Source: a virus
Lineage: Duplodnaviria > Heunggongvirae > Uroviricota > Caudoviricetes
Strand: one strand, 5' to 3'
Length of the DNA stretch: 64,000 bases
Virus record (IMG/VR): IMGVR_UViG_3300036790_000265
Span: 1-64,000 of that record
Part shown: positions 156-61,055 of the stretch, in pieces
Position numbering within the stretch: position 1 is the stretch's first letter
Layout of the letters: each line of letters starts with the position of its first letter
Position numbers and translations under genes: made by a program
Notes under the pieces: generated by a model
What the model saw: the letters and a program-made list of their open reading frames with translations, nothing else
Told to the model about the DNA's origin: nothing
Databases searched by the model: none

Positions 156-1676
156 ATGGAACGGCCTGGCAACATCCGGGGCGGCCTTCGCGCCGGGATC
201 TACGACCGGGTGAGCAAAAAGCCCACTGGCAAAGAGGCACGCTCGGTGGCCAGCCAGAACAAGGCCAACCGTCTCGCATGCAACCGCTACGAATGGACGG
301 TGGCAGCCAAGTACGCCGACCCGGGCGTCTCGGCGTCCAGGCACGCCAAGACCAAGCGCCGCGACGACTACGAGCGGCTGCGCGATGACGTGCGAGCCGG
401 CACGCTGGACGTGATCGTGTTCTGGGAATCTTCCCGCGGCGACCGGAAACTGGGGGAGTGGGCGTCGTTCCTGGATGACTGCCGGGACCACCACGTCTTG
501 ATCTACATCACCTCCCACGACCGGCTCTACGACATGTCCCGCAGCCGGGACCGGCGCAGCCTCGCCGAGGACGGGGTGGACTCCGAGTACGAGACCGACA
601 AACTGTCCGAGCGCGTCACGCGCGGGCTGAACACGAGCCTCGAACTCGGCCGCCCACACGGCGTGACCCCGTTCGGGTGCGTCCGCACATACGACCGGTT
701 CCGCAACCTCGTGTCTCAGGGGCCCGACCCGGCAACAGGGTGGGTGCCCCGCGAGGTGATCACGCGGGTCGCGGACATGGAACCTGTCTCGGCGATCCGG
801 AAAGATATGGCCGCCCGCGGTGCGCCGACCGCCCGCGGCGGCCCGTGGACAGACGCGCTGGTGCGCAAGTTCGCGTTGAACCCTGCCTACGCGGCCCTGC
901 GGATCGGGCCTGACGGGGAGTTCATCGACGGGATGCAAGGCTGGGAGCCGGTTGTCCCCCGGGATGTCTGGTTGCGTGCCTACCAGCGGGTGACGTCGAA
1001 CCAGCACGGGAGCTGGCACCCGGGCGCGAAGCACCTTTACCTGCTGTCGTACCTGGCGATGTGCGGGAACTGCGGCGGCCCGTTGCGCAGGCAACCGGTC
1101 CGGGGCCTGGAGATGTACAGCTGCAAAGACAACTCGTGTGCGTCGATCAAGATGGAGTGGCTTGACGCGTACGTGCTCGGGCGCCTGTGCCGGCTCCTCG
1201 ACGACCCGGCGTTCTGGGCCGAGTTGCTGCGGGAGGACGACGGGCCGGTGAAAGCAGCCCGCGCGAAAGTGGCCGGGCTACGACTCCAGTTGCAGGGTTT
1301 TGAGGCCAAAGCCATCGAAGGCGAGATCGACCCGGAATCGTTCGCGACGATCTCCAAAGGACTTCGGGCCAAGATCAGGGAGGCAGAAGGCGGCGTTACC
1401 CCAGTGACCGTGCCAGCGCACCTGATCGCCCTTCATGAGGACGATTCGGGGACGTCGGTCCGCGAACTGGTGGAATCCTGGCCGCTCGCTACCCGGAAGG
1501 CGACCCTCCGCGATTTCTATGACGGGGTGATCCTCCTGCCGGCTGGAGGACGCGGCCGGCAGGCTGGGTTCAACCCGGGCCGGGTGCTGCTCGTCCGGAA
1601 GGGTCAGCCGGTGTGGGGAAGCGGCGCGACTCGTCAGGCAGCGTCTTGGGTTCGGGTGGTTGAGGCGGCAGCCTGA
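156..1676 (+). CDS. large serine recombinase (phage integrase type)
   Basis: N-terminal resolvase domain (GIYDRVSKK...S nucleophile region), recombinase domain, zinc ribbon CGNCGGPL..C, C-terminal coiled coil; 506 aa. Confidence 0.9.
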   Translation: MERPGNIRGGLRAGIYDRVSKKPTGKEARSVASQNKANRLACNRYEWTVAAKYADPGVSASRHAKTKRRDDYERLRDDVRAGTLDVIVFWESSRGDRKLGEWASFLDDCRDHHVLIYITSHDRLYDMSRSRDRRSLAEDGVDSEYETDKLSERVTRGLNTSLELGRPHGVTPFGCVRTYDRFRNLVSQGPDPATGWVPREVITRVADMEPVSAIRKDMAARGAPTARGGPWTDALVRKFALNPAYAALRIGPDGEFIDGMQGWEPVVPRDVWLRAYQRVTSNQHGSWHPGAKHLYLLSYLAMCGNCGGPLRRQPVRGLEMYSCKDNSCASIKMEWLDAYVLGRLCRLLDDPAFWAELLREDDGPVKAARAKVAGLRLQLQGFEAKAIEGEIDPESFATISKGLRAKIREAEGGVTPVTVPAHLIALHEDDSGTSVRELVESWPLATRKATLRDFYDGVILLPAGGRGRQAGFNPGRVLLVRKGQPVWGSGATRQAASWVRVVEAAA

Positions 1677-1912
1677 TCCGCCGCGGGCCCGGGTTCGGGG
1701 AGCTTTCCCAGGAGCCGATGGTAGGCGAGCGCGTGTCTCACGCTCGGCCGCCGGACGCCGGATTCCCACTGCGACACGGTGGACGGGGCGACGTCGAGTG
1801 TTGCGGCGACGTCGGTCTGGGTGATCATGGCGGCCTCGCGGCGGGCGCGGGCGGTCCCGTTCCCCAGCTCAATGCGGATCTGCGCTACGGCAGTCAGTTC
1901 GGATTGCTTCAC
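1634..1912 (-). CDS. XRE-family HTH transcriptional regulator
   Basis: MITQTDVAATLDVAPSTVSQWESGVRRPS is a classic Cro/CI HTH. Confidence 0.7.
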   Translation of the reverse strand: MKQSELTAVAQIRIELGNGTARARREAAMITQTDVAATLDVAPSTVSQWESGVRRPSVRHALAYHRLLGKLPEPGPAADQAAASTTRTQDAA

Positions 1913-2034
1913 ACGATCATGTTACGGATCGTGCGTCAGATCGAAAACAGTCGATTCACGAGGTAATCACATCCGTGTTACTCTAGTTACCGGGAATGTA
2001 GATTCCCGGTAGTTGACCCCGTTTCGGAGGCCCC

Positions 2035-3033
2035 GTGAGTGATCTTGAAATCGTTCCGCACAGCGACCTCGCCGCAACATCCGCGACACCACTGCGGCGC
2101 CGCGACGAGAACCCGTACTGGGTGTACCTCGCACGGTTTAGAGGCGAGTCCGAGCGCACCATGCGACGGTGCCTCGACCGGATTGCGGCGATCATCCTCA
2201 GCCGCTCCCCCGCCGACCCTGAACATGATCTTGGTGAGCAGATCCCGTGGGAACAGATCCGCTACGCCCACGTGGCCCGGCTCCGGTCCGAGTTCGCGGT
2301 GCAGTGGCAGTCGCCCAGCAGCGCGAACAAGCACCTGTCCGCGCTGCGCGGCGTACTCCACGAAGCGTGGCGACTCGGGCTGATGACCGCTGAGGACTAC
2401 CAGCGGGCCATCGACGTCGAGAACGTCAAGGGCAGCCGCCTGCTGGCCGGCCGGAACATCCACGCCGACGAGACCACCGCCATGCTCCGCGTCTGCCTGG
2501 CCGACGAGAACGCCCCGCTCGGCATCCGCGACGCCGCACTGGTCGCCGTGCTCCAGTCCACCGGCATCCGCCGCGCTGAGGCCGCAGCCGCGCTGATCGA
2601 GCGGTACGACCCCGGTGAGCGTGGGCTCAAGCTTGTCGGCAAGGGCAACAAGGAACGGATCGTGTTCATCCACCCGGGCGCGGTTCCCTACCTGGATGGG
2701 TGGCTTGTCCTGCTCGGTGTACGCCGCGGCGCGATGTTCCGGCGCGTCGACCGGTGGGGCAACATCGGTGCTGAGCGGCTGAGTGCGCGGGCGATCGGCT
2801 ACATCGTCAACCATCGCCGTGAGCAGGCCGGGCTGCCGAAACTCTCAACGCACGATTTTCGCAGGACTTTCATCGGCGACTTCATCGATGCCGGCGGTGA
2901 CCTTGTGCAGGCGCAGAAGCTCGCCGGGCACGCGTCGGCCACGACTACGGCCGCCTACGACCGGCGCCCAGACCGCGCGCTGCGTACGGCTGTGGACAAA
3001 CTGAGCCTGCCCCCGAGGGAGAAGCTCCGATGA
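2035..3033 (+). CDS. tyrosine recombinase / integrase (XerC/D-like)
   Basis: C-terminal catalytic box LSTHDFRRTF...LAGHASATTTAAYDRR (R..HxxR..Y). Confidence 0.85.
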   Translation: MSDLEIVPHSDLAATSATPLRRRDENPYWVYLARFRGESERTMRRCLDRIAAIILSRSPADPEHDLGEQIPWEQIRYAHVARLRSEFAVQWQSPSSANKHLSALRGVLHEAWRLGLMTAEDYQRAIDVENVKGSRLLAGRNIHADETTAMLRVCLADENAPLGIRDAALVAVLQSTGIRRAEAAAALIERYDPGERGLKLVGKGNKERIVFIHPGAVPYLDGWLVLLGVRRGAMFRRVDRWGNIGAERLSARAIGYIVNHRREQAGLPKLSTHDFRRTFIGDFIDAGGDLVQAQKLAGHASATTTAAYDRRPDRALRTAVDKLSLPPREKLR

Positions 3034-3048
3034 GTAATCCTTGTAGTC

Positions 3049-3069
3049 GGCCGATGAAGGGGATCGGCC
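3049..3069. terminator. hairpin GGCCGAT-n7-ATCGGCC downstream of the integrase; possible bidirectional terminator
   Basis: 7-bp perfect inverted repeat between convergent genes. Confidence 0.3.
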
Positions 3070-3070
3070 T

Positions 3071-3217
3071 CTAACCGAGCAGCGCCCCCGCGATCGTGCC
3101 CAGGGTTGTGGCCGTCTTCGGGGGCACGCCCATCTGCTCGAACACGTCGGTCGCGATCTGGTCAACGACCCATCCGACAACGGCACCGATCAGGATGCCG
3201 ACGATTTTCTTCTCCAT
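3071..3217 (-). CDS. small hydrophobic protein (48 aa)
   Basis: MEKKIVGILIGAVVGWVVDQIA... has a predicted TM helix; not in the ORF track (below 60 aa). Confidence 0.3.
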   Translation of the reverse strand: MEKKIVGILIGAVVGWVVDQIATDVFEQMGVPPKTATTLGTIAGALLG

Positions 3218-3378
3218 GGATCTACGGTACTCGGCTGTGCTGACATCCCCGGGCGCCTCAACGCCCGGACATGGGCGGCACGGCAGCCCAAAGAATCTTG
3301 GTCTGGTGCGTGGGGTAACTGCGGGCCAGCGACCTATGAGCGAGCGAACACAGCTACAACCCGGGCGCGCAGGGTCTT

Positions 3379-3669
3379 CTATGCTTCGTCGGCCCCTCGA
3401 TCTGGATCATCAGGGTGCCGCTCGGCGCGCAGCATGTACTTGAGGATGCTCTGCTGGCACTCGGTGAGGGCCTGTAGCAGTTCGATGTCGGTCAGGCCGT
3501 GGTCGCGCTGGAACTTGTCCACGAGTATCTTGAGCTCGGCGCGCGCCTGGTGGGCCCGATCGGCGCGGGGGTGCTCGTGGAGTTGCGGTGGCCCGACGAG
3601 CATCCGGGCGATCGGGCCGAGCCCTTGTAGCGATGGGTGCGGTAGCTCTTGCCTCTCGCGGTCGCTCAT
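3379..3669 (-). CDS. hypothetical protein
   Basis: ORF with ATGA overlap to the downstream gene; start chosen at an internal Met. Confidence 0.4.
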   Translation of the reverse strand: MSDRERQELPHPSLQGLGPIARMLVGPPQLHEHPRADRAHQARAELKILVDKFQRDHGLTDIELLQALTECQQSILKYMLRAERHPDDPDRGADEA

Positions 3670-4151
3670 TGCACCAGCCTGCACGACGGGCAGAACAGCT
3701 CTACTGTGCCGTGGGCGATCCGGACGTCCAGAGCCGCGCACCCTTGCGCGCACCACCCGTACGTGCACGCGCGTTCCACCTCGGCAGCGGTCACCGGACC
3801 AGCGGCGGCGAGTACCCGGTCCAGGGGCGAGTTTGAGGGTGGCCACCACTCCCCCGGCTTGTAATCCGGGTGCTTGTCCCAGATGCCCGTGAGGTAGCGC
3901 AGGTGCTCACGCCACACGTCTTCGTGGTCCGGGCCGCCCCAGGTGTCCTCAACGATCGCGCGCACGGCTTTGACCACTGCGAGCACGAGTACCGGATCGA
4001 CAGCCTTCCAGAACTCCTCGGCGGCCGGGCCACCGGCAGCGGTGAAGTCTGGTATCCGGTCTGGTATGCGGGTCGCGAAGAACAGGCCGTTCGCCCGTTC
4101 CTCCAACTCGGCGAGGCGGGCGTGGACGAAACCGGCCGGGCCCGCGCTCAC
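3666..4151 (-). CDS. hypothetical protein, C-terminal CxxC..CxxC
   Basis: GTG start in a GTGA overlap with the upstream gene stop. Confidence 0.4.
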   Translation of the reverse strand: MSAGPAGFVHARLAELEERANGLFFATRIPDRIPDFTAAGGPAAEEFWKAVDPVLVLAVVKAVRAIVEDTWGGPDHEDVWREHLRYLTGIWDKHPDYKPGEWWPPSNSPLDRVLAAAGPVTAAEVERACTYGWCAQGCAALDVRIAHGTVELFCPSCRLVQ

Positions 4152-4378
4152 GGCTTTCCTTTCCCGTGGTGGCGCAGCTTCCACCACAGGAGCGAGATCC
4201 CTCGGATCCGGTCCCATTGCGGGCCCCAGAGGAGGTTGTACGCCCGGCGTCGCCAGTACGCCCCGCAGGTCGCGCATCGCCACACGCTGCCGGGTGGGCC
4301 GTCTCCGTGGGTGCGGGCGTAGCAGTCGTGATGGTAGGGCGCGGTGTAGACCATGCGGCCTGCTTCCCGGTCAGGCAT
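4148..4378 (-). CDS. hypothetical protein
   Basis: ORF in the coupled gene array. Confidence 0.35.
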   Translation of the reverse strand: MPDREAGRMVYTAPYHHDCYARTHGDGPPGSVWRCATCGAYWRRRAYNLLWGPQWDRIRGISLLWWKLRHHGKGKP

Positions 4379-4856
4379 CGGGTTCCCACTTCCACGCGGA
4401 GCGGCACGCGCAAAGCCAGACATCCCCGGCTTGGAGGTCACCGTCTACAAGCTCGGGAGGGGTGCACTGGCAGGTCCGCGTCCAGGTGCCGTCCCACCGC
4501 CATTGACCGGCGCGGGGGCCAGCCCAGGACAGCGGGCCGAGGCCGCGGCGACGCCACGCCACCCGGGTTTCCCAGCACGGAGCCGGCCCGGTGTTTCCCG
4601 GGCCGGTGTGCATCATCGTGTGCTCGTCGTAGCTCAGCGGCCGGTCGCCGCGCATCCACAACGCCTGGTACACCGATGCCGCGAACGACTCCCATGACGG
4701 GTCGGTGGCGAGCAGGGCGTTGAGGGCGGTGTCGGAGTCGCGGAACCATCCTTGGCTTACGTCGTCGTGGGTGGCGAACGGTGGGGCCGAGCAAGGCGAG
4801 AACGAGTAGTAGCTGGTTACGGGGCAGCGGTACACGGTCACGCCGCAGGTGATCAT
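4371..4856 (-). CDS. hypothetical protein
   Basis: ORF, Trp-rich. Confidence 0.4.
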   Translation of the reverse strand: MITCGVTVYRCPVTSYYSFSPCSAPPFATHDDVSQGWFRDSDTALNALLATDPSWESFAASVYQALWMRGDRPLSYDEHTMMHTGPGNTGPAPCWETRVAWRRRGLGPLSWAGPRAGQWRWDGTWTRTCQCTPPELVDGDLQAGDVWLCACRSAWKWEPDA

Positions 4857-8277: not shown

Positions 8278-9045
8278 TCAGGCCGCCTTGAGGCAGGGCA
8301 GGACCGGGATGGCCTCGGCCAGCCAGTTACCAGGCTCGGCCGCGAACCGGGGAGCTGGCATCGGTAGCCAGTGCGCCCACGGCAAATCGGTCTCGGAGGT
8401 GATACGGCGGCAGATGCGGCCGCGGCGGGCCCCTTCCGGGTAGTCGTTCCAGTTGATCCCGGCTTCCTGCCACAGCAGCTCTTGCATCTGGTCGCCGTTC
8501 AGGCCGTGGAGCCGGCTGTGCGAGAAGCAGGCTTGGGCGGCCATCGCGATCGAGTTCCGTACCGCGTCGCGTTGCCGCCACAGGAAGTAGTTCGCCACCT
8601 CGACCGCGCTGGGGATGGTGAACACCCGCCCGTCGAACATGGCCGGATGCGGCGGCAGCGCTTGCACCAGGCCGGGGATGGTCCGGGCGCGGTCGTTGAA
8701 CGTTGCGGTGGCCAACGCGGCGGCCGACGACGCGATCTTCTGGACGTTCCCGCCGAACCACGGTTCGGTTTGGAAGGTGGCGAAGTCGGTGAGCAGCAGC
8801 GACACTTCGTCGGATTGCTGGTAGGAGAACACGGTCCCGCTGATCTGCGAGCACAACGCGACAGCAACCAGGTTGATCGCCTGCATGACCCCGTAGTCGA
8901 ACGGGCGTTTAGCCTGGCGCAGGTAGGTGTGGAACGCGCGGCCGTCGACGCGGATGATCGTGTAGGTGCGGCGTGGAAGCACCTGCCGGGTTGGGGTCTC
9001 GTAGGCCTTCATACGGTCGCCGAGGGCTGTGCTGTCACTGCTCAA
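8278..9045 (-). CDS. Thg1-like protein (tRNA-His guanylyltransferase family, 3'-5' nucleotidyl polymerase)
   Basis: YTIIRVDGRAFH, QQSDEVSLLL and FDGRVFTIPS...YFLWRQRDAVRN align with Thg1 motifs VVVRLDGRNFH, GQSDEYSFVF and FDGRVVVYPS...YLSWRQADCH. Confidence 0.8.
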   Translation of the reverse strand: MSSDSTALGDRMKAYETPTRQVLPRRTYTIIRVDGRAFHTYLRQAKRPFDYGVMQAINLVAVALCSQISGTVFSYQQSDEVSLLLTDFATFQTEPWFGGNVQKIASSAAALATATFNDRARTIPGLVQALPPHPAMFDGRVFTIPSAVEVANYFLWRQRDAVRNSIAMAAQACFSHSRLHGLNGDQMQELLWQEAGINWNDYPEGARRGRICRRITSETDLPWAHWLPMPAPRFAAEPGNWLAEAIPVLPCLKAA

Positions 9046-9395: not shown

Positions 9396-10230
9396 GGAGA
9401 GACCGCCTCTCCCGGGCCGGGCCGGTCTCGGGTGACCGCCAGTCGCCGAGATCAGGCGGTGGCGGTGGGATCACGTCGCCCGCGCCGAGGGCGACGACCT
9501 CGCGGGCGGTGAACGGGCCGGCCGTTGCCAGCGCGGGCAGCACGAGCGGCCAGGTGAGGTGTTCGCCGTGGGTCCTGGTCACCCACTCGGCGTCTGGCCA
9601 CGCGGGCACCTCGGCCGGTTCCCACGTGAACGTGAGCGCGCGGTCGTCGTCGCCTGGGTTGTACTGCCACAGGTACGAGCCTTCGTCGTCAGGCGGCCAG
9701 GTGGCCTCATACCAGCCAGACGCAGGAGCCACATAGCCGCCGAGAATCACCGAGGCCCAGAAGCCGATGACATCTGGGTCGATGTCCCGCACGGTGTAGA
9801 CGCCCATAGGGGACAACGTCGTTGGATCAGACCCCGGGCAAGTGCCGTAGCGAACCTCTGGCAGGCCTTCCAACTCTCGGAGGCGGTTCAACGTCATGCA
9901 CCCGTACGACACGACATCGAACGAGCGGACGATCGGCTCACATTCGGCGTAGATCCAGCCGAGCAGACCGGAGACGGCGCGAGTTTGGGAGCCTCGTACC
10001 CAGCCGGCGTAAGGGCTGTCGTGCCAGTTCTGCGCGGCGACGTCGGCGACCGCGAGCCAGGCGGCGTATCCGTCCAGGCCGGTGTCGTGCATGACCTGAC
10101 GTACGGTCTCGATGTCGCGGGGCGGCAGGTGCGGGAACACGCGGCCGGTGCAGCGCATCGCGTCCTCGCTGACCGTCCAGTCGTCGAGGGCGCCGTCGAT
10201 CGCGGCTAGGACGCTAGCGACATCAGGCAC
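9385..10230 (-). CDS. hypothetical protein (281 aa)
   Basis: ORF between the Thg1-like and RtcB genes; GTG start in cccGTGCCTGATg context. Confidence 0.45.
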   Translation of the reverse strand: MPDVASVLAAIDGALDDWTVSEDAMRCTGRVFPHLPPRDIETVRQVMHDTGLDGYAAWLAVADVAAQNWHDSPYAGWVRGSQTRAVSGLLGWIYAECEPIVRSFDVVSYGCMTLNRLRELEGLPEVRYGTCPGSDPTTLSPMGVYTVRDIDPDVIGFWASVILGGYVAPASGWYEATWPPDDEGSYLWQYNPGDDDRALTFTWEPAEVPAWPDAEWVTRTHGEHLTWPLVLPALATAGPFTAREVVALGAGDVIPPPPPDLGDWRSPETGPARERRSLRGQ

Positions 10231-10236
10231 GGGCCG

Positions 10237-11409
10237 CTACTCTCCCTTAACGTTCACGATCTGCCGCAGCGTGTGCACGACCTCAACGAGGTCGGCCGCG
10301 TCGGCCATCACCTGATCGACTGGCTTGTAAGCGCCGGGGATCTCGTCCAGGAACGCATCGCTGTGCCGCCATTCGATGCCCTCCATTGCGGTGTCGAGCT
10401 GCTCGCGGGTGAACGTCTTGCGGGCCGAGTTGCGGCTGTGCATCCTGCCAGCACCATGCGGCGACGAGTTGAGTGCCAGCCGGTTTCCCTTTCCCCGCAC
10501 GACGTACGAGGCGGTGCCCATCGAGCCGGGAATCAGGCCCGGCGTGCCGTCGCTGGCGTCGATCGCGCCCTTGCGGCTCAGCCAGACTTTCTTGCCAAAA
10601 TGGGTCTCCTGCTCCGTGTAATTGTGGTGACACTGCACCGCCTCCAGGCCGGTGACCGGCATGCCGGTCCAGGCGTCCAGGCACAGAAGGACGCGGTGCA
10701 TCATCTCCTGCCGGTTCAGCAGGGCGAAGTGCTGCGCCCAGCGCAGGTCGCGGATGTAGGCCCAGAACTCGTCGTCGCCCTCGACCAGGTAGGCGAGGTC
10801 TGGGTCGGGGAGGCTGATCCACCGCTTCTTGCACTGCTGCTGGGCGATCTTGATGTGGCGCATGGCGAGCTTGTTGCCGACGCCGCGCGAGCCGCTGTGC
10901 AGGAACGCCCAGACGTGGCCGTGCTCGTCGAGGCTGATCTCGATGAAGTGGTTCCCGCTGCCCAGCGAGCCGAGTTGCAGCCGCCAGTTCGGGGCGATGG
11001 CCTCCGCGCTGGCCGCGCCATCGCCGAACTCCTCCAGGTCGGCGATCCGCTGCTCGGTCGCGGCGCCGAAGACGGCCTCGTTGTAGACGCCGACCGACAG
11101 CGGGATGGCCTGCTCGATGGCCTCGCGCAGCCTGCTCAGGTGCGGCAGCCCGCGCACGTCCGCAGCGGTCAGGTGGGTGCGCACGGCATGCATGCCGCAG
11201 CCGATATCGACGCCGACCGCTGCCGGCATGATCGCACCGAGCGTCGGGATCACGCTGCCCACGGTCGCGCCCTTACCGAGGTGCGCGTCCGGCATCAGCG
11301 CGATGTGCGGGTGGATGAACGGCATCGTCGACGCCAACTCGGCCTGGGTGCGCGTGTTCGGCTCCAGGATCGACGCCCAGTTGATCAGGCGTTTCGTGAT
11401 CTGCTCCAT
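10237..11409 (-). CDS. rtcB: RNA-splicing ligase RtcB (3'-phosphate/5'-hydroxyl RNA ligase)
   Basis: Near full-length colinearity with E. coli RtcB: MPDAHLGKGATVGSVIP, VGVDIGCGM, GSGNHFIEI, HSGSRGVGN, CHHNY, PGSMG, HGAGR. Confidence 0.95.
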   Translation of the reverse strand: MEQITKRLINWASILEPNTRTQAELASTMPFIHPHIALMPDAHLGKGATVGSVIPTLGAIMPAAVGVDIGCGMHAVRTHLTAADVRGLPHLSRLREAIEQAIPLSVGVYNEAVFGAATEQRIADLEEFGDGAASAEAIAPNWRLQLGSLGSGNHFIEISLDEHGHVWAFLHSGSRGVGNKLAMRHIKIAQQQCKKRWISLPDPDLAYLVEGDDEFWAYIRDLRWAQHFALLNRQEMMHRVLLCLDAWTGMPVTGLEAVQCHHNYTEQETHFGKKVWLSRKGAIDASDGTPGLIPGSMGTASYVVRGKGNRLALNSSPHGAGRMHSRNSARKTFTREQLDTAMEGIEWRHSDAFLDEIPGAYKPVDQVMADAADLVEVVHTLRQIVNVKGE

Positions 11410-20114: not shown

Positions 20115-20486
20115 TCACTCGACCGCCTCACACGACTTGCAGATCCACCGGTCCGGGTCGTCCAGATCGCGTCGGCAGGTGCGCCGCTCCTCGCAGCACC
20201 AGCAGAGCTGATTGCGCTTCTCCTCCCGCCCCGGCAGCGGCTCAGGCCCAGGCTCGGGCAGTGGGACCGCACCAACGCGCTCGCGGTAGATCGCCCGCAC
20301 CGCCTCGTCCCGCTCAGCCAGCGCCGCCACCAGATCGGCCTCCGAGAGGTCCGTCGCGACCTGCCGGAGCATCGGCCCGAACTCGGCCACACACTGCGGG
20401 CACGGGCTGGCCGGTGAGTCTGACTGGTTCCGGCAGCCGGGGAGTGCACACTCGGCGAACAGAACGAGCTGGCCGACTTCCGTCAT
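20115..20486 (-). CDS. zinc-finger-rich hypothetical protein
   Basis: Multiple CxxC pairs. Confidence 0.4.
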   Translation of the reverse strand: MTEVGQLVLFAECALPGCRNQSDSPASPCPQCVAEFGPMLRQVATDLSEADLVAALAERDEAVRAIYRERVGAVPLPEPGPEPLPGREEKRNQLCWCCEERRTCRRDLDDPDRWICKSCEAVE

Positions 20487-21304
20487 GCTGCACTCCAATC
20501 CAGGCCAAGGGAGTCCTGCTCGCCGACCGTGACAAGCCGCGACAAGAGGTCGGCGCGCCACTGGGAGGCGTAGATCAAACAATTGGCGCAGTTCTTGTGC
20601 GTGTGGCCGGGTAGCGGCGGGTTACGCCGCGCCTCATAGCTCCAGGCCATCGAGTCGGCCGAGATGAGCTTGTGCCCAAACGACCGCAATCCCTGGGTCT
20701 TCACCCCGAACGCGTGCACCGCATACTCGGGGGTCAGGGCCTCGATCAGCATGCTGATCCGCGCGGTCCCCTGCCGCCGGCACACCGACCCGACCCCGAC
20801 AACCGGATAGTCCGCCAGCTTCACCCCGGCCGCGGCGTACAGGTCAGCGCAGCGGAGGTATTCGCCGATCGTCCAGCCCTGCAACACGGGCATGAACGGG
20901 CACTCGCTGTCGCTGTACGCAGGCCAGAGGTTCACGAGCTGGAGGAAGTTCTCAACTGTCCGCCGCTGGTGCTCACCAACGCTCAGGTGGGTACCGGGGC
21001 AGCCCGCGCCGCCCTGGATGATCCACGGCTCGCACATCCAGTCCTGCGGCGCTGCCCACTCCAGGTGCCCGATCTCAGTGTCGTAGCGGGCCACGGCCGC
21101 GCAGTACTCGGCCGGGGTGGTGCGCCACTCCCCGAACTTGGACAGTTCGGTGAAGCCGCCGCTGTCGAGCGCCCAGCCGTGTGTGGACGGCTGGAAGGTC
21201 TTGTAGCGGGACAGCGCGCGGTGGCCAACGAACATCGGGAAGTCGGCGGCGGGGGTCCACAGCCAGTGGGGCTGGTGGGAGCCGAGGTAGAAGTGGCAGG
21301 TCAC
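20483..21304 (-). CDS. TGT-superfamily transglycosylase-like protein (tRNA-guanine transglycosylase / DpdA-like)
   Basis: WALDSGGFTE matches the TGT active-site motif LTDSGGFQV; VVGVGSV matches MGVGKP; CxxC near the C terminus. Confidence 0.5.
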   Translation of the reverse strand: MTCHFYLGSHQPHWLWTPAADFPMFVGHRALSRYKTFQPSTHGWALDSGGFTELSKFGEWRTTPAEYCAAVARYDTEIGHLEWAAPQDWMCEPWIIQGGAGCPGTHLSVGEHQRRTVENFLQLVNLWPAYSDSECPFMPVLQGWTIGEYLRCADLYAAAGVKLADYPVVGVGSVCRRQGTARISMLIEALTPEYAVHAFGVKTQGLRSFGHKLISADSMAWSYEARRNPPLPGHTHKNCANCLIYASQWRADLLSRLVTVGEQDSLGLDWSAA

Positions 21305-25421: not shown

Positions 25422-25670
25422 TTAGGCGGTGCGGCGGCTGCTGACGGGGAGGCCATTCGGCAGGAACCGGGCTGGGGAGAAGTCACGCGGCTCGGATCCG
25501 GGGGTGTGCGCGAGCTGCACGAGGGAGATCGCGATCTTGCTGTGGACGTGCCCGTTCGTCACGGCCTGGCCGATCACGGCGCGGACTTCCTGCTCGTCCC
25601 AGTCGGGGCGTTCGCTACGGACGTAGGCGACGAGGAGATCGGTGGTGCTCGCGGTCGTGGTCTCGCTCAT
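25422..25670 (-). CDS. hypothetical protein
   Basis: ORF. Confidence 0.4.
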   Translation of the reverse strand: MSETTTASTTDLLVAYVRSERPDWDEQEVRAVIGQAVTNGHVHSKIAISLVQLAHTPGSEPRDFSPARFLPNGLPVSSRRTA

Positions 25671-26449
25671 GCCGCTGACCCAACTTCCGGCTCCGGCAGG
25701 CGCTCCCCCGACGATGTGACCTCGTACAGCACTTCACAGGAGCGGACCTTGACCTTCGTGTTGTCCAGCACGACCACGTCGGCCAGCGCCACCCGGCAGG
25801 CCAGGTAACGCTTTGACGGGGTGTACAGGTAGGACCCGGCGATGCGCGGGTACGGGCTGAGATGAAGGCCGTACCCGCACTCGGTAACCGCACGGAAGTC
25901 AGGTGCCGTGACGGTCTCGCCGATCGGGTACCGCATGCCGTGGCCGGAGACCAGGTTCTCGTCCACGGCCTTGAACAAGGTCATGTGACCGTCCTCAACG
26001 GGGATGCCCTCGAACTCAGCCCACTCAGCAGGGCTCACGGTCTCGGGCACCCGGATGATCTGGCCACCAGTGATCTTCGGCCGGTTCGTGTGCTGGTAGA
26101 CGGTCGCGTACTTCGCGGCGGTGACGGTGCCGTCGTAGGCGTGGACGACTGCGGTGCCTACGGCATGCACGCTGCCGGAGCCGGTCACCCGCCCCACGCT
26201 GCCGGAGCCGTCCACCCACTCCACGCGGCCGGAGCCGTCCACCCACTCCACGCGGCCGGAGCCGGTCACCCACCCCACGCGGCCGGAGCCGGTCACCCGC
26301 CCCACGCGGCCGGAGCTGATTTCCCTGACGTATCCGGTCACGATGTGCAGGCATGCGCCCGGGTCGTTCTTGTGCTGGTCGTACTCGGTTTGGTTGTGGA
26401 TTTCGATGCAATTCACGCTGAGAGTTCCTTCGTTTTCGAGGGGTGACAT
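25667..26449 (-). CDS. hypothetical protein with nonapeptide tandem repeats (SGRV[GE][RW]V[TD]G x6)
   Basis: ORF; internal 27-bp DNA tandem repeats. Confidence 0.5.
   Translation of the reverse strand: MSPLENEGTLSVNCIEIHNQTEYDQHKNDPGACLHIVTGYVREISSGRVGRVTGSGRVGWVTGSGRVEWVDGSGRVEWVDGSGSVGRVTGSGSVHAVGTAVVHAYDGTVTAAKYATVYQHTNRPKITGGQIIRVPETVSPAEWAEFEGIPVEDGHMTLFKAVDENLVSGHGMRYPIGETVTAPDFRAVTECGYGLHLSPYPRIAGSYLYTPSKRYLACRVALADVVVLDNTKVKVRSCEVLYEVTSSGERLPEPEVGSAA
26174..26320. repeat. 27-bp direct tandem repeat, about 5.5 copies (gccggagccgKYcacccRcYccacgcK), in-frame inside the CDS
   Basis: Read directly from sequence. Confidence 0.85.
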
Positions 26450-27354
26450 TTCGGGCAGGGGCCGAGGTCCCGGCCGTCGTCTTGGGCTTGGCGACGACGG
26501 CTTGGTTCGTGGCACTCACCGCACCAAGGCGGCCGGGCCGGGCCGGGGAGCGCGAACCGGGTTACCGGGTCCGCGTCGGCTTCGATCGCTGCGCGGCAGT
26601 ACGCGGCGGGATCGTTCGGTTTGCGGCGGCCGAGGATAGTCCGGGCGATCTTCGCGGCGGTGTCAGCGTCGATGCTGCGGCCGGTGGTTTCATCGATCGT
26701 TTCGATGATCGTTTTCAAAATCAGATCATCATCGGTTGAACCGTTCTCGGCGTAATGGCTGGTGTGAGATCTGACTGATGGATCTGTGGATCTTTTAGGT
26801 TCGGATCTGGATCTGGATAGGGCGATTGGCTGGCGATCGGTATGTGACCGCTCGGAGCGATCGGTATCCGATTCACTATCCGATCGCATACCGATAACTG
26901 ACCGATCACTAGCGGGCGGGCAGTACGGACAGTTCGGGTTGGTGTGGCCGTCCGTATGCCACCTGCGGTGGTTGCCCAGCTTCCCGCCGTCCGATTTGGC
27001 TGCTATCGCGTTGGCCTGCGCCGTCGTCGCCTCAGCCTTCGTCGGATGCAACCAGAAGTAGTCGTGGATGACCCACCCGTCCACGTCCACCGGAGCGGGG
27101 CAGTCCGGTGACGGGCATTCGTGCCGGGCGTCATGCCACACCCCGCGTTGTGGTCGCGCGCACTCGGCCGCGAGCTTCGCAGGCTGACGTAGCCGGGGCA
27201 CCACCAGGGCCACGTCGTCGCGTGGGATGACACCATCGGTGCCGTTGGCGCGGCACCAGAAGATCGCGGTCGTGTGCAGGCGGAACGCGGCGTCCGACAG
27301 CCCGGCAACCTTCCGGTTGAACGGGAACTGGTCATCGAACGGGACCCAGGACAT
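26413..27354 (-). CDS. hypothetical protein (possible replication initiator), central low-complexity SDSESDTDRSERS region
   Basis: ORF; contains an AT-richer iteron-like segment at 26700-26900. Confidence 0.45.
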   Translation of the reverse strand: MSWVPFDDQFPFNRKVAGLSDAAFRLHTTAIFWCRANGTDGVIPRDDVALVVPRLRQPAKLAAECARPQRGVWHDARHECPSPDCPAPVDVDGWVIHDYFWLHPTKAEATTAQANAIAAKSDGGKLGNHRRWHTDGHTNPNCPYCPPASDRSVIGMRSDSESDTDRSERSHTDRQPIALSRSRSEPKRSTDPSVRSHTSHYAENGSTDDDLILKTIIETIDETTGRSIDADTAAKIARTILGRRKPNDPAAYCRAAIEADADPVTRFALPGPARPPWCGECHEPSRRRQAQDDGRDLGPCPKCHPSKTKELSA

Positions 27355-33640: not shown

Positions 33641-33919
33641 TCACTGGGTCGCCGCCGATCCGGCCAGCGCGGCGCGGCCGGCTTCCATCAGTTCGTTGCC
33701 GCGTTTACAACTCGTGGCGTGGAGGATCATGTTGAGCAGGCCGAGTTCGGTGGCGTCCGGGCCGAGGTTGGGCATCGGCGGTGCGGCGCGCATGCCGCGT
33801 AGCTTGCTGCCGACGCCCTTGCGCAGGGTTGAGGCTTCGGCGCCGCACCGGCACCGGATACCAGGGGTGCCGTGCTTGTCGCGGACGATCAGCAGCGGAA
33901 GGACGGTGAAGTCGCTCAC
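33641..33919 (-). CDS. hypothetical protein
   Basis: ORF. Confidence 0.35.
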   Translation of the reverse strand: MSDFTVLPLLIVRDKHGTPGIRCRCGAEASTLRKGVGSKLRGMRAAPPMPNLGPDATELGLLNMILHATSCKRGNELMEAGRAALAGSAATQ

Positions 33920-34410
33920 GGCACCCTCACCGGCCTTGTAGCTGCCGACTTGGCGTGCCGGTCATGCAGCAGGATTGAGCCCGCGCATGCGACGTTCATT
34001 GACTGCGAGACGACCGTCTCGACCTGGGTCAGGTAGTGACACTGGTCGAGTACCGAAACAGGCAGCCCGTGGTCTTCCGCGCCGAGTAGGTAGCACGCCC
34101 GTTCCGGGTGCACGAACGACGCGAGGTGTTCGGCGCGCGGGTCGAGTTCGACGCCGACGAGCGGGCACGACCACGGCAGGTGCGTGACCAGGTCGTCCAA
34201 GTCGGTGAAGTGGAACATCGGGGTGCGCTGCGGGGTGTCGATCGTGTCGCTGGCCTGCCTGGTATAGCGGTGGCCGACCGTGAACACGAACGCGCAGTCG
34301 AACAGGAACGCTGACCGCCACAGCGACCCGACGTTGATCTTGGTCTTCGGATGCCAGATGCCGATCGCGGCGAAGCCCCGGCCAGCTCGGGCGTAGGTGC
34401 GGCGGGTCAC
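33916..34410 (-). CDS. SPOUT-superfamily RNA 2'-O-methyltransferase (SpoU/TrmH/TrmL-like)
   Basis: GFAAIGIWHPKTKINVGSLWRSA (motif 1) and LLGAEDHGLPVSVLDQCHYLTQVETVVSQSMNVACAGSILLHD (motifs 2-3, trefoil-knot SAM site). Confidence 0.7.
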   Translation of the reverse strand: MTRRTYARAGRGFAAIGIWHPKTKINVGSLWRSAFLFDCAFVFTVGHRYTRQASDTIDTPQRTPMFHFTDLDDLVTHLPWSCPLVGVELDPRAEHLASFVHPERACYLLGAEDHGLPVSVLDQCHYLTQVETVVSQSMNVACAGSILLHDRHAKSAATRPVRVP

Positions 34411-43824: not shown

Positions 43825-44673
43825 TCATATGATCAGATCCCGCGCGGCCCTGGTCAGCAGTTCCCGCGCACCGGCGCCCGTTTCGGCCGCGGCGAGCAGA
43901 TCGTCCATGATGTTGCCGTACCGCGAAGCCTCGGCGAGTTCCGGCTTCACCTCGGACGTGTAGGTCTCCATGATCACGAGGTCGTCCACCATCAGGAACC
44001 CGAGGATGGGCACCACGGCTAGTTCCCGGCCCGGTGGGATGACCCCGAACGTCACGTTGGCCAGCCCCGTCACCGTGAGCAGCCGGTCGATCTGCGCAGA
44101 CATCACTGGCACCGGGCACGTCAGGTAGCGGACCGCGGCCTCGCAGATCACGAACTCGAACGTCTTACCCGAGTCGTACAGCACTTCCTGCCGGCGCGCC
44201 CGCGCGGCGACCGCTTCCTCAACACCATCCGGGCTTTCCCCGAACCGGCGTGCCGATATCTCCATCTGGGAGCGGGCGTAGTCCGGGGTCTGGAGCAGGC
44301 CCGGGACTAGCAGCGTCTCGAAGTTACGGATGCGGGATGCCCCGCGCACGATCGTGTCGTACTCGGCTTGGAGCGCGGCGTGGCCGCTCCGCAGCCGCAG
44401 CCGCCATTCCCGGTACACGGACTGTGCCTCGTCCAGCAGCGCCAGCAGGTCAGCACGTTCGTCTGGCTGGCCGCAGGCAGTGACCCAGCCTGTGATGTCG
44501 GCCTCGGTGGGCATCTGGCGGCCGTTCTCCAGCTTGGGCACCTTGCTGCGGGGCCACCCCAGCTGGGCGGCAAGTTCGACACCAGTGAGCCCGGCGGTCT
44601 TGCGGATGCGCACCAGGCGCTCCGCGAGGCCGCCGGGCTGATTGAGCCATACTCCAGTCGGCTGCACGGTCAT
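43825..44673 (-). CDS. XRE-family HTH regulator with DUF5753-type C-terminal domain
   Basis: LVRIRKTAGLTGVELAAQLGWPRSKVPKLENGRQ; actinomycete Scr1-like architecture. Confidence 0.7.
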   Translation of the reverse strand: MTVQPTGVWLNQPGGLAERLVRIRKTAGLTGVELAAQLGWPRSKVPKLENGRQMPTEADITGWVTACGQPDERADLLALLDEAQSVYREWRLRLRSGHAALQAEYDTIVRGASRIRNFETLLVPGLLQTPDYARSQMEISARRFGESPDGVEEAVAARARRQEVLYDSGKTFEFVICEAAVRYLTCPVPVMSAQIDRLLTVTGLANVTFGVIPPGRELAVVPILGFLMVDDLVIMETYTSEVKPELAEASRYGNIMDDLLAAAETGAGARELLTRAARDLII

Positions 44674-44682
44674 CCCTGTTGA

Positions 44683-45222
44683 TCAGGCGGCGGCTGACGC
44701 CCCCGCCGGCGTGGCGTAACGGACTGCCAGGTCCCGCCATCGCTGGTACCGGGCAACCTCACCCGGCTCATTGATCAGCGTTTTACCATCGATCTCACCT
44801 GTGGCCGTGAACCGCATCACGATCACGGCCGCGTCGTCGAGCAGCCACCAGTCATGCTCCAGCGGCAACCCGGCCTCCCGCGCGCGGGAGCGTGCCAGGT
44901 AGCTGATCCGCTCCCCCGCCTCGGCGTGCCAGGGATCGGCTGCCATAAGCCACCGCTGGTAGTCGCTCGGCGGCTCGGCGAGGATGCGGACACGGCTCAT
45001 CACGCGGCCTTCGCGGGTGAGCTGGGCCACCTGGTCGAGCCACGGCCGCCACCAGTCCACCTCGAGCGGGTTGACTGTCCCGGTGGCGAGGAAGCTTTCG
45101 AAGTCGGCCCGTTCGTAGTCCAGGGCGTAGGCGTCGAGAGTTTCAAGCCGGAACGCTGAGCGGCTGTACCCGGCCAGGAGCCGGTTGAACTCTTCTTCGG
45201 TGACCGGGGTGCCGGACGTCAC
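44683..45222 (-). CDS. hypothetical protein
   Basis: GTG start in a GTGA overlap. Confidence 0.4.
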   Translation of the reverse strand: MTSGTPVTEEEFNRLLAGYSRSAFRLETLDAYALDYERADFESFLATGTVNPLEVDWWRPWLDQVAQLTREGRVMSRVRILAEPPSDYQRWLMAADPWHAEAGERISYLARSRAREAGLPLEHDWWLLDDAAVIVMRFTATGEIDGKTLINEPGEVARYQRWRDLAVRYATPAGASAAA

Positions 45223-45422
45223 GAGGTCAGGCCGTCGATCACGTCGGCGGGCACCCAAACACCGTCCTCGTCGTTGCCGAGGTCGCGCAGCTGGGCTCGT
45301 ACCTCGTCGGTCAGGCGCTTGCCTTGGATGACGTAGCCGCCTTCGGCGCTGGTCACCTTGTAGCGGGCTGGGCAATTGCCGGTCGCCGAGCTTGCCGTCT
45401 TCCACTGGAACTGGATCTTCAT
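45219..45422 (-). CDS. DUF397-like small protein
   Basis: FQWKTASSATGNCPARYKV resembles the DUF397 WRKSSYS..GNCVEV motif; GGAGGAG RBS. Confidence 0.4.
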   Translation of the reverse strand: MKIQFQWKTASSATGNCPARYKVTSAEGGYVIQGKRLTDEVRAQLRDLGNDEDGVWVPADVIDGLTS

Positions 45423-51496: not shown

Positions 51497-51901
51497 ATGG
51501 GACTGTTCGGCCGACGAACCCGCAGTAACCCGGCCGCCGAAGCCGCGCAATGGCAGCCAGAAGAGTGGATCGGGACTTCCTTGCGGTACCTGAACGCTGC
51601 CCTGCCCGGGGCATCGGTCGATATCACCGCCGAGCCTGTCAACTACGAAGGCCCGTGGCGCGTGGAAATCCGGGCCGTCTGGACGGCTCCCGGGTGGCAG
51701 CACGAGCAGGGGGAACTCCTGGCCCTTGTCTACGACACCGACGAAGACGCAGAAGCGGACGCTGCCACGATCATGAAGTGGCTGGGCGAAGGCTGCGCCC
51801 CCGCCGAGTTGCTGCCGGACCTGCATAACGATCAGATGCTTGCACTCATCTGCGGGTGGGACGGTCAGCCGTTCTCCGTGGCCGAAGCCGGAATGATCTG
51901 A
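51497..51901 (+). CDS. tandem paralog 1 (MGLFGRR...WDGQPFS family)
   Basis: Shares N-terminal MGLF.R and C-terminal (F)EWDG.PF with the three following genes. Confidence 0.6.
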   Translation: MGLFGRRTRSNPAAEAAQWQPEEWIGTSLRYLNAALPGASVDITAEPVNYEGPWRVEIRAVWTAPGWQHEQGELLALVYDTDEDAEADAATIMKWLGEGCAPAELLPDLHNDQMLALICGWDGQPFSVAEAGMI

Positions 51902-52344
51902 TGGGACTGTTCAGCAGGAACCGCAGCGCCGCACCCCAGTGGAGGCCGGTGATTGGCGCCAGCGTGGATGTGACCGGTTACGAAGCGGACATGAACGATG
52001 AAGGGCAAGTGCCCGACCGCGCCTACCTGGTGATGTTCGGGATGGTTCATCCCGACGGTGCAGTGATCACTATCTGGACGTACGCCAGCTACACGGGCGA
52101 CGGCCGTTACTGTGTCAGGCTGCGTTACCGGTACACCTCCGAAGCTCACCCTGACTGGTCATTCACAGGGCACGCAGGTGACCCGCTGGAGGAGACCTAT
52201 CCTGACCCAGCCACCGCGGAATACGAAGCGGCAGCGTGGTCCGACAGCCTCGCAAGCGGGAGCCAGCCCACCATGGCCAACCTTCCGGAGGTCTTCGACT
52301 GGGACGGTCAGCCGTTCTCGGCGGCCCCGGCCGAGGTGATCTGA
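51901..52344 (+). CDS. tandem paralog 2
   Basis: TGATGGG junction; ITIWTY..Y...Y..RY core. Confidence 0.6.
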   Translation: MGLFSRNRSAAPQWRPVIGASVDVTGYEADMNDEGQVPDRAYLVMFGMVHPDGAVITIWTYASYTGDGRYCVRLRYRYTSEAHPDWSFTGHAGDPLEETYPDPATAEYEAAAWSDSLASGSQPTMANLPEVFDWDGQPFSAAPAEVI

Positions 52345-52766
52345 TGGGCCTGTTCGGGCGCACCCGCCAGGTCCAGGTGCAGACGGAGACCTGGCAGCCC
52401 CAGCCGGGGATGGGCCAGATCGCCAAGTCCTACGACATGGACGACGACCGCACCGAAGGCGGCAGCGCCTATGGGGTCACATTCGCCTTGGATGGCTCAC
52501 CGGGCGCCCAGATCACCGTCTGGACCTACATCACCCGGGCGCCGAGTCACTGGCCAGGCAAGTACACGGTCGGCTACCGGTGGGATCACATCTACCGAGG
52601 CCAGTCTGTGCAGACGTTCTACGGCGCGGACGAGCAGCCGTACAGGCGCTGGTCCGATTGTGATGAGGCTGCCCGCGCCGCCGCGCGTCAACTCGCCGAG
52701 ACTGTCCGCACCGTCCCGGCCGACGATGACCTGCCGTTTTTTGAGTGGGACGGGAGGCCGTTCTGA
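52344..52766 (+). CDS. tandem paralog 3
   Basis: As above. Confidence 0.6.
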   Translation: MGLFGRTRQVQVQTETWQPQPGMGQIAKSYDMDDDRTEGGSAYGVTFALDGSPGAQITVWTYITRAPSHWPGKYTVGYRWDHIYRGQSVQTFYGADEQPYRRWSDCDEAARAAARQLAETVRTVPADDDLPFFEWDGRPF

Positions 52767-53215
52767 TGGGGTTGTTCAACAGGCAACGGTCGGTGGCCGT
52801 CGAAACTGATTGCGCTGTATGGCAGCCGGTCAGCAGCCAGATCGACACGGTGCCCGGCTGCGAGATGGACGATCAGGGCTGCGCCGGCGACTACGCCTAC
52901 GGTGCCAGATTCGCCCTAGCCAGCGCCCCAGGCGCCACGATCACTGTCTGGTGTTATCCGGTCTACGGACCGCTGGACATGCTCGGGACCTATCAGATCG
53001 GCTACCGGCGCGACTACCACTTCGACCCCGGCGCTGGCCTTCCGTGGCACGCATCAGATTACGACGGAGACGCCGAGTTCTACGAGAGCCTGGATGAGTG
53101 CGCTGCGGTTGCTAGAGAGTGCGCGGTAACGCTCGCGGTGACACGCCGAGATGGCCTCACCTCGGACCCTGACGACAACAACCTGTTCTTCGAGTGGGAT
53201 GGGGTGCCGTTCTGA
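52766..53215 (+). CDS. tandem paralog 4
   Basis: As above. Confidence 0.6.
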   Translation: MGLFNRQRSVAVETDCAVWQPVSSQIDTVPGCEMDDQGCAGDYAYGARFALASAPGATITVWCYPVYGPLDMLGTYQIGYRRDYHFDPGAGLPWHASDYDGDAEFYESLDECAAVARECAVTLAVTRRDGLTSDPDDNNLFFEWDGVPF

Positions 53216-53465: not shown

Positions 53466-54401
53466 GTGGACACCGGCAAGTTCATCTCTTTCATCTCTCG
53501 GCACGTCGGCCGCGAGCGCCTGGCGGCCATCTGGAAGCGGCGCCCGCAGCGGACCCGGCCCGCGCCGGGCACCATTTCTCCTGGTGCGAAGAAGGCGATC
53601 CTTGCGGCCACCGCCGGCGTGGTGACCGCGGTGGCGTCGTTCGCGGGGATCCAGTCGTACAGCCATATCTACTGGCTGGCCGCGACTCACCGGCAGGACC
53701 GGTTGGACTCTGCCCTGGCGCCTCTGTCGGTGGACGGCCTGATCGTGGCGTTCTCGCTGGTGATCTTGTTCTTCTCCGTCACCGGCCGCCCAGTGCCGTT
53801 CCTGGCTCGCTGCGCCCTGTGGCTCGGCGTCGGTGTCACCGTCGCCGCGAACGTCGCGTTCGGAATCCCGGCCGGGATCATCGGCGCGCTGGTGTCGGCG
53901 TGGCCAGCGGTCGCGTTCGTGCTCTCAGCCGAGGGCCTGATGATCCTTGTACGCGCGGCGACGGGTACGCGCATCGCACCCGCGCACTCGAGTGCACCCG
54001 AACCGGGGTACGATTCGGCCGCACCTGTACCCGTACCCGTACCCGGAGGCGCGCTCCGCACTTTCGAACCCGCACCCGCTGCACCCGTACTCGACACCAC
54101 CGCCGAACCCGCGTCTGTACTCGCCAGCGCACCCGCTCAGCGTGGCCGCACTCAGCGAACTCGACAGGTGCAGCGCACCCCGAACGGAGACTCGGCCGTA
54201 CCCGACTGGGCGACGACCTACCCGGGGGCGTACGCCAACCGCCACATCCCGTCAATCCGCGTGATCCGCGACAAGATGGGTGTCGGCCAGTCCACGGCGC
54301 AGGTCCACCAGGCCCATTACCGCGCCCAACTCGACGCAGAAAGGGGTCGCGGCGACGACGCGGAACAGGAGGGCGAGCCGGCGATGGGCGCCGCCTCGTA
54401 G
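53466..54401 (+). CDS. DUF2637-like membrane protein with C-terminal HTH
   Basis: GAGGAG RBS + GTG; FAGIQSYSHIYWLAATHRQDRLDSALAPLSVDGLIVAFSLVIL; 4 TM. Confidence 0.5.
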   Translation: MDTGKFISFISRHVGRERLAAIWKRRPQRTRPAPGTISPGAKKAILAATAGVVTAVASFAGIQSYSHIYWLAATHRQDRLDSALAPLSVDGLIVAFSLVILFFSVTGRPVPFLARCALWLGVGVTVAANVAFGIPAGIIGALVSAWPAVAFVLSAEGLMILVRAATGTRIAPAHSSAPEPGYDSAAPVPVPVPGGALRTFEPAPAAPVLDTTAEPASVLASAPAQRGRTQRTRQVQRTPNGDSAVPDWATTYPGAYANRHIPSIRVIRDKMGVGQSTAQVHQAHYRAQLDAERGRGDDAEQEGEPAMGAAS

Positions 54402-60781: not shown

Positions 60782-61055
60782 CAGCGACCCGGCGTGGTGT
60801 GCCTGCACCCCCTGGACGGCGGTCACCGCAGGCCCCCGTCCGCCAGCGCGACCAGGAGCGCGGCGGACTGGTCGCGGCGGGCCGCGGCGAGGATCTTGTG
60901 TGCGGTGGTTTTGGCCCGCCGGAACCCCGTGCTCTCTGTGCGGCCCGGGTGGTCGGGGATATCTACGGTCCAGGAGTGGTCTTCGTGTTCGGTGTGCACG
61001 CCGCCGCCCGGCTTGTGGCTGGCCGGGCCGCCTGGGCACCGGCAGGTCGCATCAT

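Follow-up and report, generated by a model that had tools for sequence, protein, structure and literature searches.

Where does a DNA-guanine transglycosylase find its base when neither the mobile element that carries it nor most of its hosts can make one? The question is raised by a 64,000 nt stretch of viral DNA (positions 1 to 64,000 of IMG/VR record IMGVR_UViG_3300036790_000265, referred to here as the window; G+C ~68 %) that includes a gene, dpdA, for a 273 aa predicted DNA-guanine transglycosylase with the fold of the tRNA-guanine transglycosylases (TGTs). Elements with DpdA only have been a loose end since 2019, as the DNA-modifying enzyme is apparently intact and the hosts are unable to make its substrate. 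A set of 76 phages with DpdA only was reported, the singleton DpdAs of mycobacteriophages (the 'third group') were found to form a separate similarity cluster, and the question of the donor was raised at that time (Hutinet et al. 2019, PMC6884629). The window adds one case and alone changes nothing. Comparison with 163 related loci (83 genomic and 80 viral) narrows the question, because repeated linkage of dpdA to a QPTR transporter gene and, more rarely, to QueC, QueD and QueE genes, with no change in the pocket, makes a salvaged preQ0-type base a concrete hypothesis. We favour, at somewhat better than even chances, an enzyme that exchanges guanine in DNA for a base of the preQ0 type, with the element relying on an outside source for that base.

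An Orion-type DpdA and its predicted active site

On sequence evidence, the dpdA open reading frame (ORF) is confirmed as real and its family match as far above chance. It starts with GTG and has a GGAGG Shine-Dalgarno sequence at a distance of 8 nt upstream, the G+C content of third codon positions is 0.89, and the distribution of G+C over codon positions is typical of a coding region. The protein matches the Pfam DpdA profile PF23859 (E = 4.8e-102; score 341 bits, cutoff 27) with residues 1–273 aligned on profile positions 1–269 of 291, and also PHROG 1279 (E = 7.8e-100). There was no match to the TGT profile PF01702 in the Pfam scan, no NCBIfam equivalog match, and no match at E <= 1 to the Dpd defence system in PADLOC. 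The initial annotation, made from the letters alone, had placed the protein in the TGT superfamily as DpdA-like on the basis of the motifs ALDSGGF and VGVGSV; both were located (residues 45–51 and 169–174), and of the TGT and DpdA profiles that it had named for a search, only the latter matched. An identical protein is encoded on one 13-kb Logan contig (the gene is in run SRR11833918), on which most other genes are without a recorded Pfam match.

The singleton DpdA of mycobacteriophage Orion (gp20) shares 52 % identity with the window DpdA over the full length (E = 4e-95), is similar in size (258 versus 273 aa) and is alike in the invariant motifs, and both are carried by an element without preQ0 genes within an actinobacterial host range. 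Identities of 56–60 % were found to mycobacteriophage proteins, those of Ekdilam, Chris and Validus among them, and 399 Mycobacterium phage records have DpdA homologues. The Orion-type similarity together with the lack of que genes fits the singleton (DpdA-only) actinophage cluster. Hence, the gene is a further case of a described lineage, and DpdA is the correct annotation of a known gene type. The window copy differs from that of Orion in its conjugation-type surroundings, in the absence of virion genes from the window, and in sharing a gene block with an intein-bearing C5 cytosine DNA methyltransferase (C5-MTase). The family is large (>7600 matches) and was found in 300 species-representative genomes, nearly all from Actinomycetota, in 116 plasmids and in 108 viral contigs. 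The nearest genomic relative among GTDB species representatives is in a metagenome-assembled genome of the Streptosporangiaceae (65 %), and the host of the window element is probably not Mycobacterium.

PDB sequence searches using the window protein, a 51-sequence family profile and the Rosebush DpdA found nothing, and the link to DpdA and the TGTs was therefore taken from comparison of folds. The AlphaFold model (pLDDT 95, pTM 0.90) has a TGT-type TIM-barrel fold, and its best structural match is the DNA enzyme DpdA, in agreement with Foldseek. Next came archaeosine TGT (score 17.8), bacterial TGT (17.1), QTRT2 (16.8) and the TGT-like Cap10 of CBASS (13.8), with unrelated TIM barrels at <= 12.2.

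An alignment of 51 homologues shows no variation at D47, S48, D88, Q142, G143, G170, G172, H197, F199, G200, D217, S218, W221, H236, C239 and C242. D47, D88 and D217 are also invariant over the 163 loci; the DpdA assignment had depended on the presence of catalytic aspartates as well as on a profile match, and on both counts it stands. In the model, successive beta-strands have D47, D88, Q142-G143, G170 and D217 at their C-terminal ends. We predict that D47, in the ALDSGGF motif, is the acid/base, that D88 recognizes the base and that D217 is the nucleophile, with Q142-G143 and the G170-x-G172-S-V loop as further elements of the site. A catalytic role of the aspartates is supported by their position at the strand ends, an order and spacing like those of bacterial DpdA, and the alignment to the DpdA of phage Rosebush. 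In bacterial DpdA, D95 serves as general acid/base while D256 acts as nucleophile, and the successive distances between D95, D130, H181 (of H181-G182), G206 (of G206–209) and D256 are 35/51/25/50 residues, compared to 41/54/28/47 in the window protein (PMC10164549). D47 and D217 align with the Rosebush motifs, and DSGGF, VGLG and xDSxxW are shared (hhalign probability 85 %). When hhalign was run against a single E. coli TGT sequence, only the DSGGF region aligned, and not significantly. A cluster of the form H234-x-H236-x-x-C239-x-x-C242 is a putative Zn site, with H236, C239 and C242 conserved in 85–97 % of the 163 loci. The Zn motif of TGTs is CxCxxC...H, and the ligand set in the DpdA cluster (H234/H236/C239/C242) is a different one.

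The pathway-linked DpdA1 of Rosebush (gp2) belongs to the same superfamily and has the catalytic motifs DSGxF, VGLG and xDSxxW in common with the window protein, though the two are not detected by BLAST (E = 0.24). The base-exchange chemistry of the window DpdA is presumably, by analogy, that of Rosebush gp2 and the DpdA of Enterobacteria phage 9g. Rosebush DpdA is 385 aa long and is encoded beside ParB-like, QueC, QueD, QueE and FolE genes, none of which is in the window, and dPreQ0 makes up 28 % of G in Rosebush DNA (Hutinet 2019, PMC6884629). The bacterial DpdA of the S. Montevideo Dpd system (PDB 7ui4) shares 14 % identity with the window protein, with no match at the sequence level even by family profile. 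As it is 413 aa in length compared to 273 aa, the DpdA-specific insertions must be reduced in the window protein, which also has Q142-G143, as in TGT, where the bacterial enzyme has His181-Gly182. The dpdB–K neighbours of the bacterial system are not found at the window locus, and Pfam scans of the window detected no ParB_N or Dpd-type neighbours that would indicate membership of a bacterial Dpd restriction-modification system.

Source of the donor base

Pfam scans of ~60 window ORFs revealed no QueC, QueD, QueE, FolE or QueF domain in the 64 kb, and a six-frame phmmer search using the E. coli and phage Rosebush QueC, QueD, QueE, FolE, Tgt and QueA proteins found nothing at E <= 1. The search was sensitive enough, since each reference set recovers the other at E = 1e-6 to 1e-28, and the initial observation that the window holds no que genes is thus upheld. 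A hidden Markov model of the VUT/QPTR transporters had no match in the window, and Rfam showed no preQ1 riboswitch in the window, nor in any of four loci with a linked VUT gene. With no preQ0 pathway and no transporter for precursors of its own, the element has to get the base from elsewhere.

In the related loci, a VUT (QPTR) gene abuts dpdA on the same strand in 22 of the 163 (~20 of them distinct), and Vut_1 corresponds to the YhhQ/COG1738 (QPTR) family of preQ0/preQ1 transporters (PMC5372724, PMC11130926). In a Nocardia plasmid (NZ_CP109568), only 8 nt separate the dpdA homologue from the end of the VUT gene that precedes it, and the annotation of this VUT gene is queuosine salvage. QueC, QueD and QueE genes abut dpdA in five high-GC loci among the 80 viral relatives, for example in the order QueC-QueE-QueD-DpdA in L159, and que genes were not found within 10 kb either side of dpdA in any of the 83 genomic relatives. 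The remaining loci, ~85 % of the 163, are bare, with neither pathway nor transporter. Members with a linked VUT gene occur at scattered places in the family tree, and the positions of the active site and pocket are essentially alike in Que-linked, VUT-linked and bare members, Orion gp20 and the window protein. The linkage and the like pocket tie the lineage to the supply of 7-deazaguanine, and the bare copies bear no sign of a changed substrate. The donor is thus most likely preQ0 or a related 7-deazaguanine from outside the element, and not a new base. The initial annotation had named a base supplied by the host, one encoded elsewhere and a novel one as options; the five que-linked and 22 transporter-linked loci, with their like pocket residues, make a preQ0-type base of outside supply the simplest reading and a novel base less likely.

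Fold, active-site residues and linkage to supply genes are shown by the analysis; the reaction, the base that is used and a role in protection we infer as follows. An active Orion-type DpdA, carried on an actinomycete mobile element, would put a free 7-deazaguanine base, most likely preQ0, in place of guanine in DNA. The base would be supplied by a 7-deazapurine pathway of the host, where one exists, or by uptake of exogenous queuosine precursors, and where there is no source the enzyme would be idle, as for phage Orion on M. smegmatis. The modification, with that of the nearby C5-MTase, would shield the DNA of the element from restriction after transfer. QueE regions are present in only ~0.7 % of Actinomycetota genomes (bioRxiv 10.64898/2026.04.15.718813), hence supply by the host should be exceptional, and salvage or idleness must be common.

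A number of points weigh against this proposal. The sole experimental datum for the lineage is negative, as no 7-deazaguanine was detected by liquid chromatography-tandem mass spectrometry in DNA of Orion grown on M. smegmatis (Hutinet 2019, PMC6884629). The result is, however, consistent with idleness for want of a base, given that Mycobacterium is without any Q/preQ0 genes (Hutinet 2019, PMC6884629) and that gp20 is so close to the window protein. With QueE so scarce, preQ0 is not to be had from the majority of hosts, and still the gene shows strong conservation across its many homologues, and neither the window nor the large majority of loci includes a donor pathway or a transporter. Bacterial DpdA requires the ATPase DpdB (PMC10164549), and Pfam scans revealed no ParB-like partner in the window. 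The mapping of residues onto bacterial DpdA follows sequence order and secondary structure and not a three-dimensional superposition. Finally, two DpdA lineages occur together in a 127-kb viral contig (L117, IMGVR_UViG_2932604667_000002), where a Rosebush-type DpdA with QueC, QueD, QueE and FolE is encoded at 1055–4759 and an Orion-type DpdA 5 kb from this cluster, at 10001–10750. Their co-occurrence hints that the two are not redundant and may, for instance, differ in the motif that they target or in the base.

Other substrates, targets and functions

One rival reading is that the inserted base is not among the known 7-deazaguanines but is, for instance, a purine-like metabolite common to every actinomycete, which would give an undescribed DNA modification. 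Such a base would explain how the gene can be widespread, with an invariant active site, when most hosts do not synthesize preQ0 and ~85 % of loci are bare, and it would have escaped the analysis of Orion DNA, which targeted known 7-deazaguanines (PMC6884629). We nonetheless regard it as quite unlikely, because the pocket residues are those of members that lie within QueC/D/E operons or are coupled to QPTR, and because no conserved unknown biosynthetic gene was found beside the bare dpdA copies. Less probable again is a tRNA target. DpdA would then be a TGT of minimal size, borne by the element, through which queuosine precursors obtained by salvage enter the tRNA of the host, and it might belong to a set of genes for the repair and modification of tRNA. 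A TGT-like enzyme with a QPTR transporter is the classical pair for tRNA salvage, and the element does have RtcB, Thg1-like and SpoU genes. However, the best structural match is a DNA enzyme, and E. coli TGT, at 375 aa, exceeds the window protein by ~100 residues. The recurrent neighbours of the lineage are DNA methyltransferase and replication genes, and not tRNA genes or queA, queF and queG. RtcB and Thg1 lie 9–11 kb off, only the Thg1-like gene recurs in related loci (two viral loci), and the viral QueC/E/D-DpdA operons parallel known DNA-modification clusters.

It is also conceivable, though highly improbable, that transglycosylase function has been lost in bare elements, or that the protein is a DNA glycosylase, a DNA-binding factor or a Cap10-like protein-modifying enzyme, with no base inserted in nucleic acid. 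The invariance of catalytic and base-pocket residues across the bare members suggests that base exchange has been kept, the score of Cap10 is much lower than those of DpdA and TGT, and neither a QueC-like Cap9 nor a CD-NTase was found in Pfam scans of the window. There is also a wider reading that we consider unlikely, though less so than the alternatives above, namely that bare Orion-type DpdAs are active even in those actinomycete hosts, the great majority, that are unable to make preQ0, either with a DNA base that has gone undetected or by marking DNA or tRNA only when queuosine precursors of the soil community are scavenged. If this were true, conjugative elements, plasmids and phages would carry an environment-dependent epigenetic mark.

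Genetic surroundings of dpdA

The features of the window are listed in Table 1. A 36-kb minus-strand block (~4.8–40.7 kb) contains dpdA, together with Thg1-like, RtcB, HerA-like, FtsK-gamma, Band_7, UvrD-type helicase, C5-MTase, DUF6349, SpoU, DUF5131 and RecT-like genes. The stop codon of the 136 aa ORF is 3 nt ahead of the dpdA start and the dpdA Shine-Dalgarno sequence lies within this ORF, hence the two form one operon; the 136 aa ORF is not kept beside DpdA in other loci. On the other side, the ATGA overlap suggests that dpdA and the Cys-rich ORF are translationally coupled. In a phmmer search among downstream ORFs, the Cys-rich ORF matched only its counterpart on the identical Logan contig, and in a tblastn search a longer version (20115–20582) had one match, in L006 (42 % identity). 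As L006 is the only other locus, this ORF was rejected as a family-wide partner of DpdA.

Table 1. Location of dpdA and other features in the window
Feature	Position	Strand	Remarks
Large serine recombinase	156–1676	+	left edge of mobile region
Tyrosine integrase	2035–3033	+	left edge of mobile region
Thg1-like tRNA-His guanylyltransferase	8278–9045	-	E = 7e-26
RtcB RNA ligase	10237–11409	-	E = 2.6e-117
Cys-rich ORF, 123 aa	20115–20486	-	downstream of dpdA; ATG overlaps dpdA stop (ATGA)
dpdA	20483–21304	-	273 aa Orion-type ('singleton') DpdA, predicted TGT-fold DNA-guanine transglycosylase
Small ORF, 136 aa	21308–21718	-	upstream of dpdA; no family match
C5 cytosine DNA methyltransferase, 1018 aa	29801–32857	-	interrupted by ~334 aa intein; in dpdA's minus-strand block
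SpoU-family RNA methylase	33916–34410	-	same minus-strand block
FtsK/SpoIIIE (TraB-like) DNA translocase, 711 aa	49048–51183	+	complete
Tandem Spd-like small ORFs	51497–53215	+	downstream of FtsK/TraB-like gene
DUF2637 protein	53466–54401	+	after Spd-like ORFs

The intein in the C5-MTase is full-length, has LAGLIDADG-type motifs, starts with CFPAGT and ends with LIVHN followed by C. Its insertion site is after motif IV (GVSCVNHSQ) and before motif VI, and the exteins can be aligned to the homologues without an intein that are found beside DpdA elsewhere. The initial annotation had combined a C5-MTase with DpdA as two layers of DNA modification; the methyltransferase indeed exists and is a probable second layer, and the pairing is plausible. 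When the genes directly flanking dpdA in ~70 genomic loci (130 neighbours) were examined using Pfam, C5 DNA methylases were the commonest class (10/130), and replication proteins, either Prim-Pol (8) or RepSA of pSAM2 (4), made up 12; Vut_1 (4) and DUF2637 (3) followed. Close relatives also have N6-methyltransferase, Mom, ParB and SSB genes, and such company speaks for DNA as the target. In two Nonomuraea loci, a giant ORF of ~2800–3000 aa (L046:3366-12359; L048:12335-20644) is directly downstream of dpdA.

Though the initial annotation placed the gene in a prophage, this reading was rejected, as Pfam and PHROG matches for all window ORFs >= 250 aa included none to terminase, portal, capsid or tail genes (virion genes outside the 64-kb window may exist). 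Phage-like features are limited to a GH25 lysozyme gene and a C92 peptidase match that is weak, and a TraB-like translocase, GntR, DUF2637 and Spd-like ORFs are present instead. The Spd-like ORFs are paralogous, with conserved C-terminal ends and overlapping stop and start codons (TGATGG), and resemble the Spd (spread) genes of Streptomyces. Judged from the gene content, the translocase, Spd-like ORFs and DUF2637 gene are an actinomycete-type conjugation module. The ftsK gene shares 75–78 % DNA identity with translocase genes of actinomycete replicons, three of them annotated 'DNA translocase FtsK'. In the related genomic loci, dpdA is found between FtsK/TraB-like genes (26 loci) and Prim-Pol/RepSA genes plus integrases, a layout that is, by its predicted genes, that of actinomycete integrative and conjugative elements and plasmids. 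Megablast searches (15–30 kb against phages and 40–64 kb against plasmids) found no close relative, and only dpdA and ftsK matched, at 75–78 % identity. As the dpdA family is present in bona fide phages too, it is general mobile-element cargo. The comparison shows that the lineage is not confined to phages: conjugative elements and plasmids of actinomycetes commonly carry it, often with a C5-MTase alongside, and no published description of it as such was found in the literature searched.

The Thg1-like and RtcB genes are ~1.2 kb apart with two small ORFs between them, and together with SpoU look like an RNA/tRNA repair toolkit of the mobile element that perhaps counters anticodon nucleases. 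A tRNA-Gln(ttg) predicted by ARAGORN at 60877–60958 (+ strand, 82 nt) is probably a false positive, as Rfam found no tRNA at the gathering score in the window and the call falls within an unsupported N-terminal extension of a DUF6424 ORF; no att-type direct repeats linking it to the integrase end were found. Further window genes include GntR, HTH_31/DUF5753, DUF6879 and a weak SLT match. The closest metagenomic relative with dpdA (L003) has a TraG/VirD4-type coupling protein in place of FtsK, and a 1678 aa helicase-domain protein (WH_1, DUF8437, Helicase_dom) is encoded four genes downstream of its dpdA. The pair formed by the HTH_31/DUF5753 regulator and DUF6879 (43825–45405, minus strand, in the window) recurs there at 1–669. 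Six tandem 27-nt units, encoding a nonapeptide repeat, are located at 26141–26343 inside a DUF7666-containing ORF (25667–26515, minus strand).
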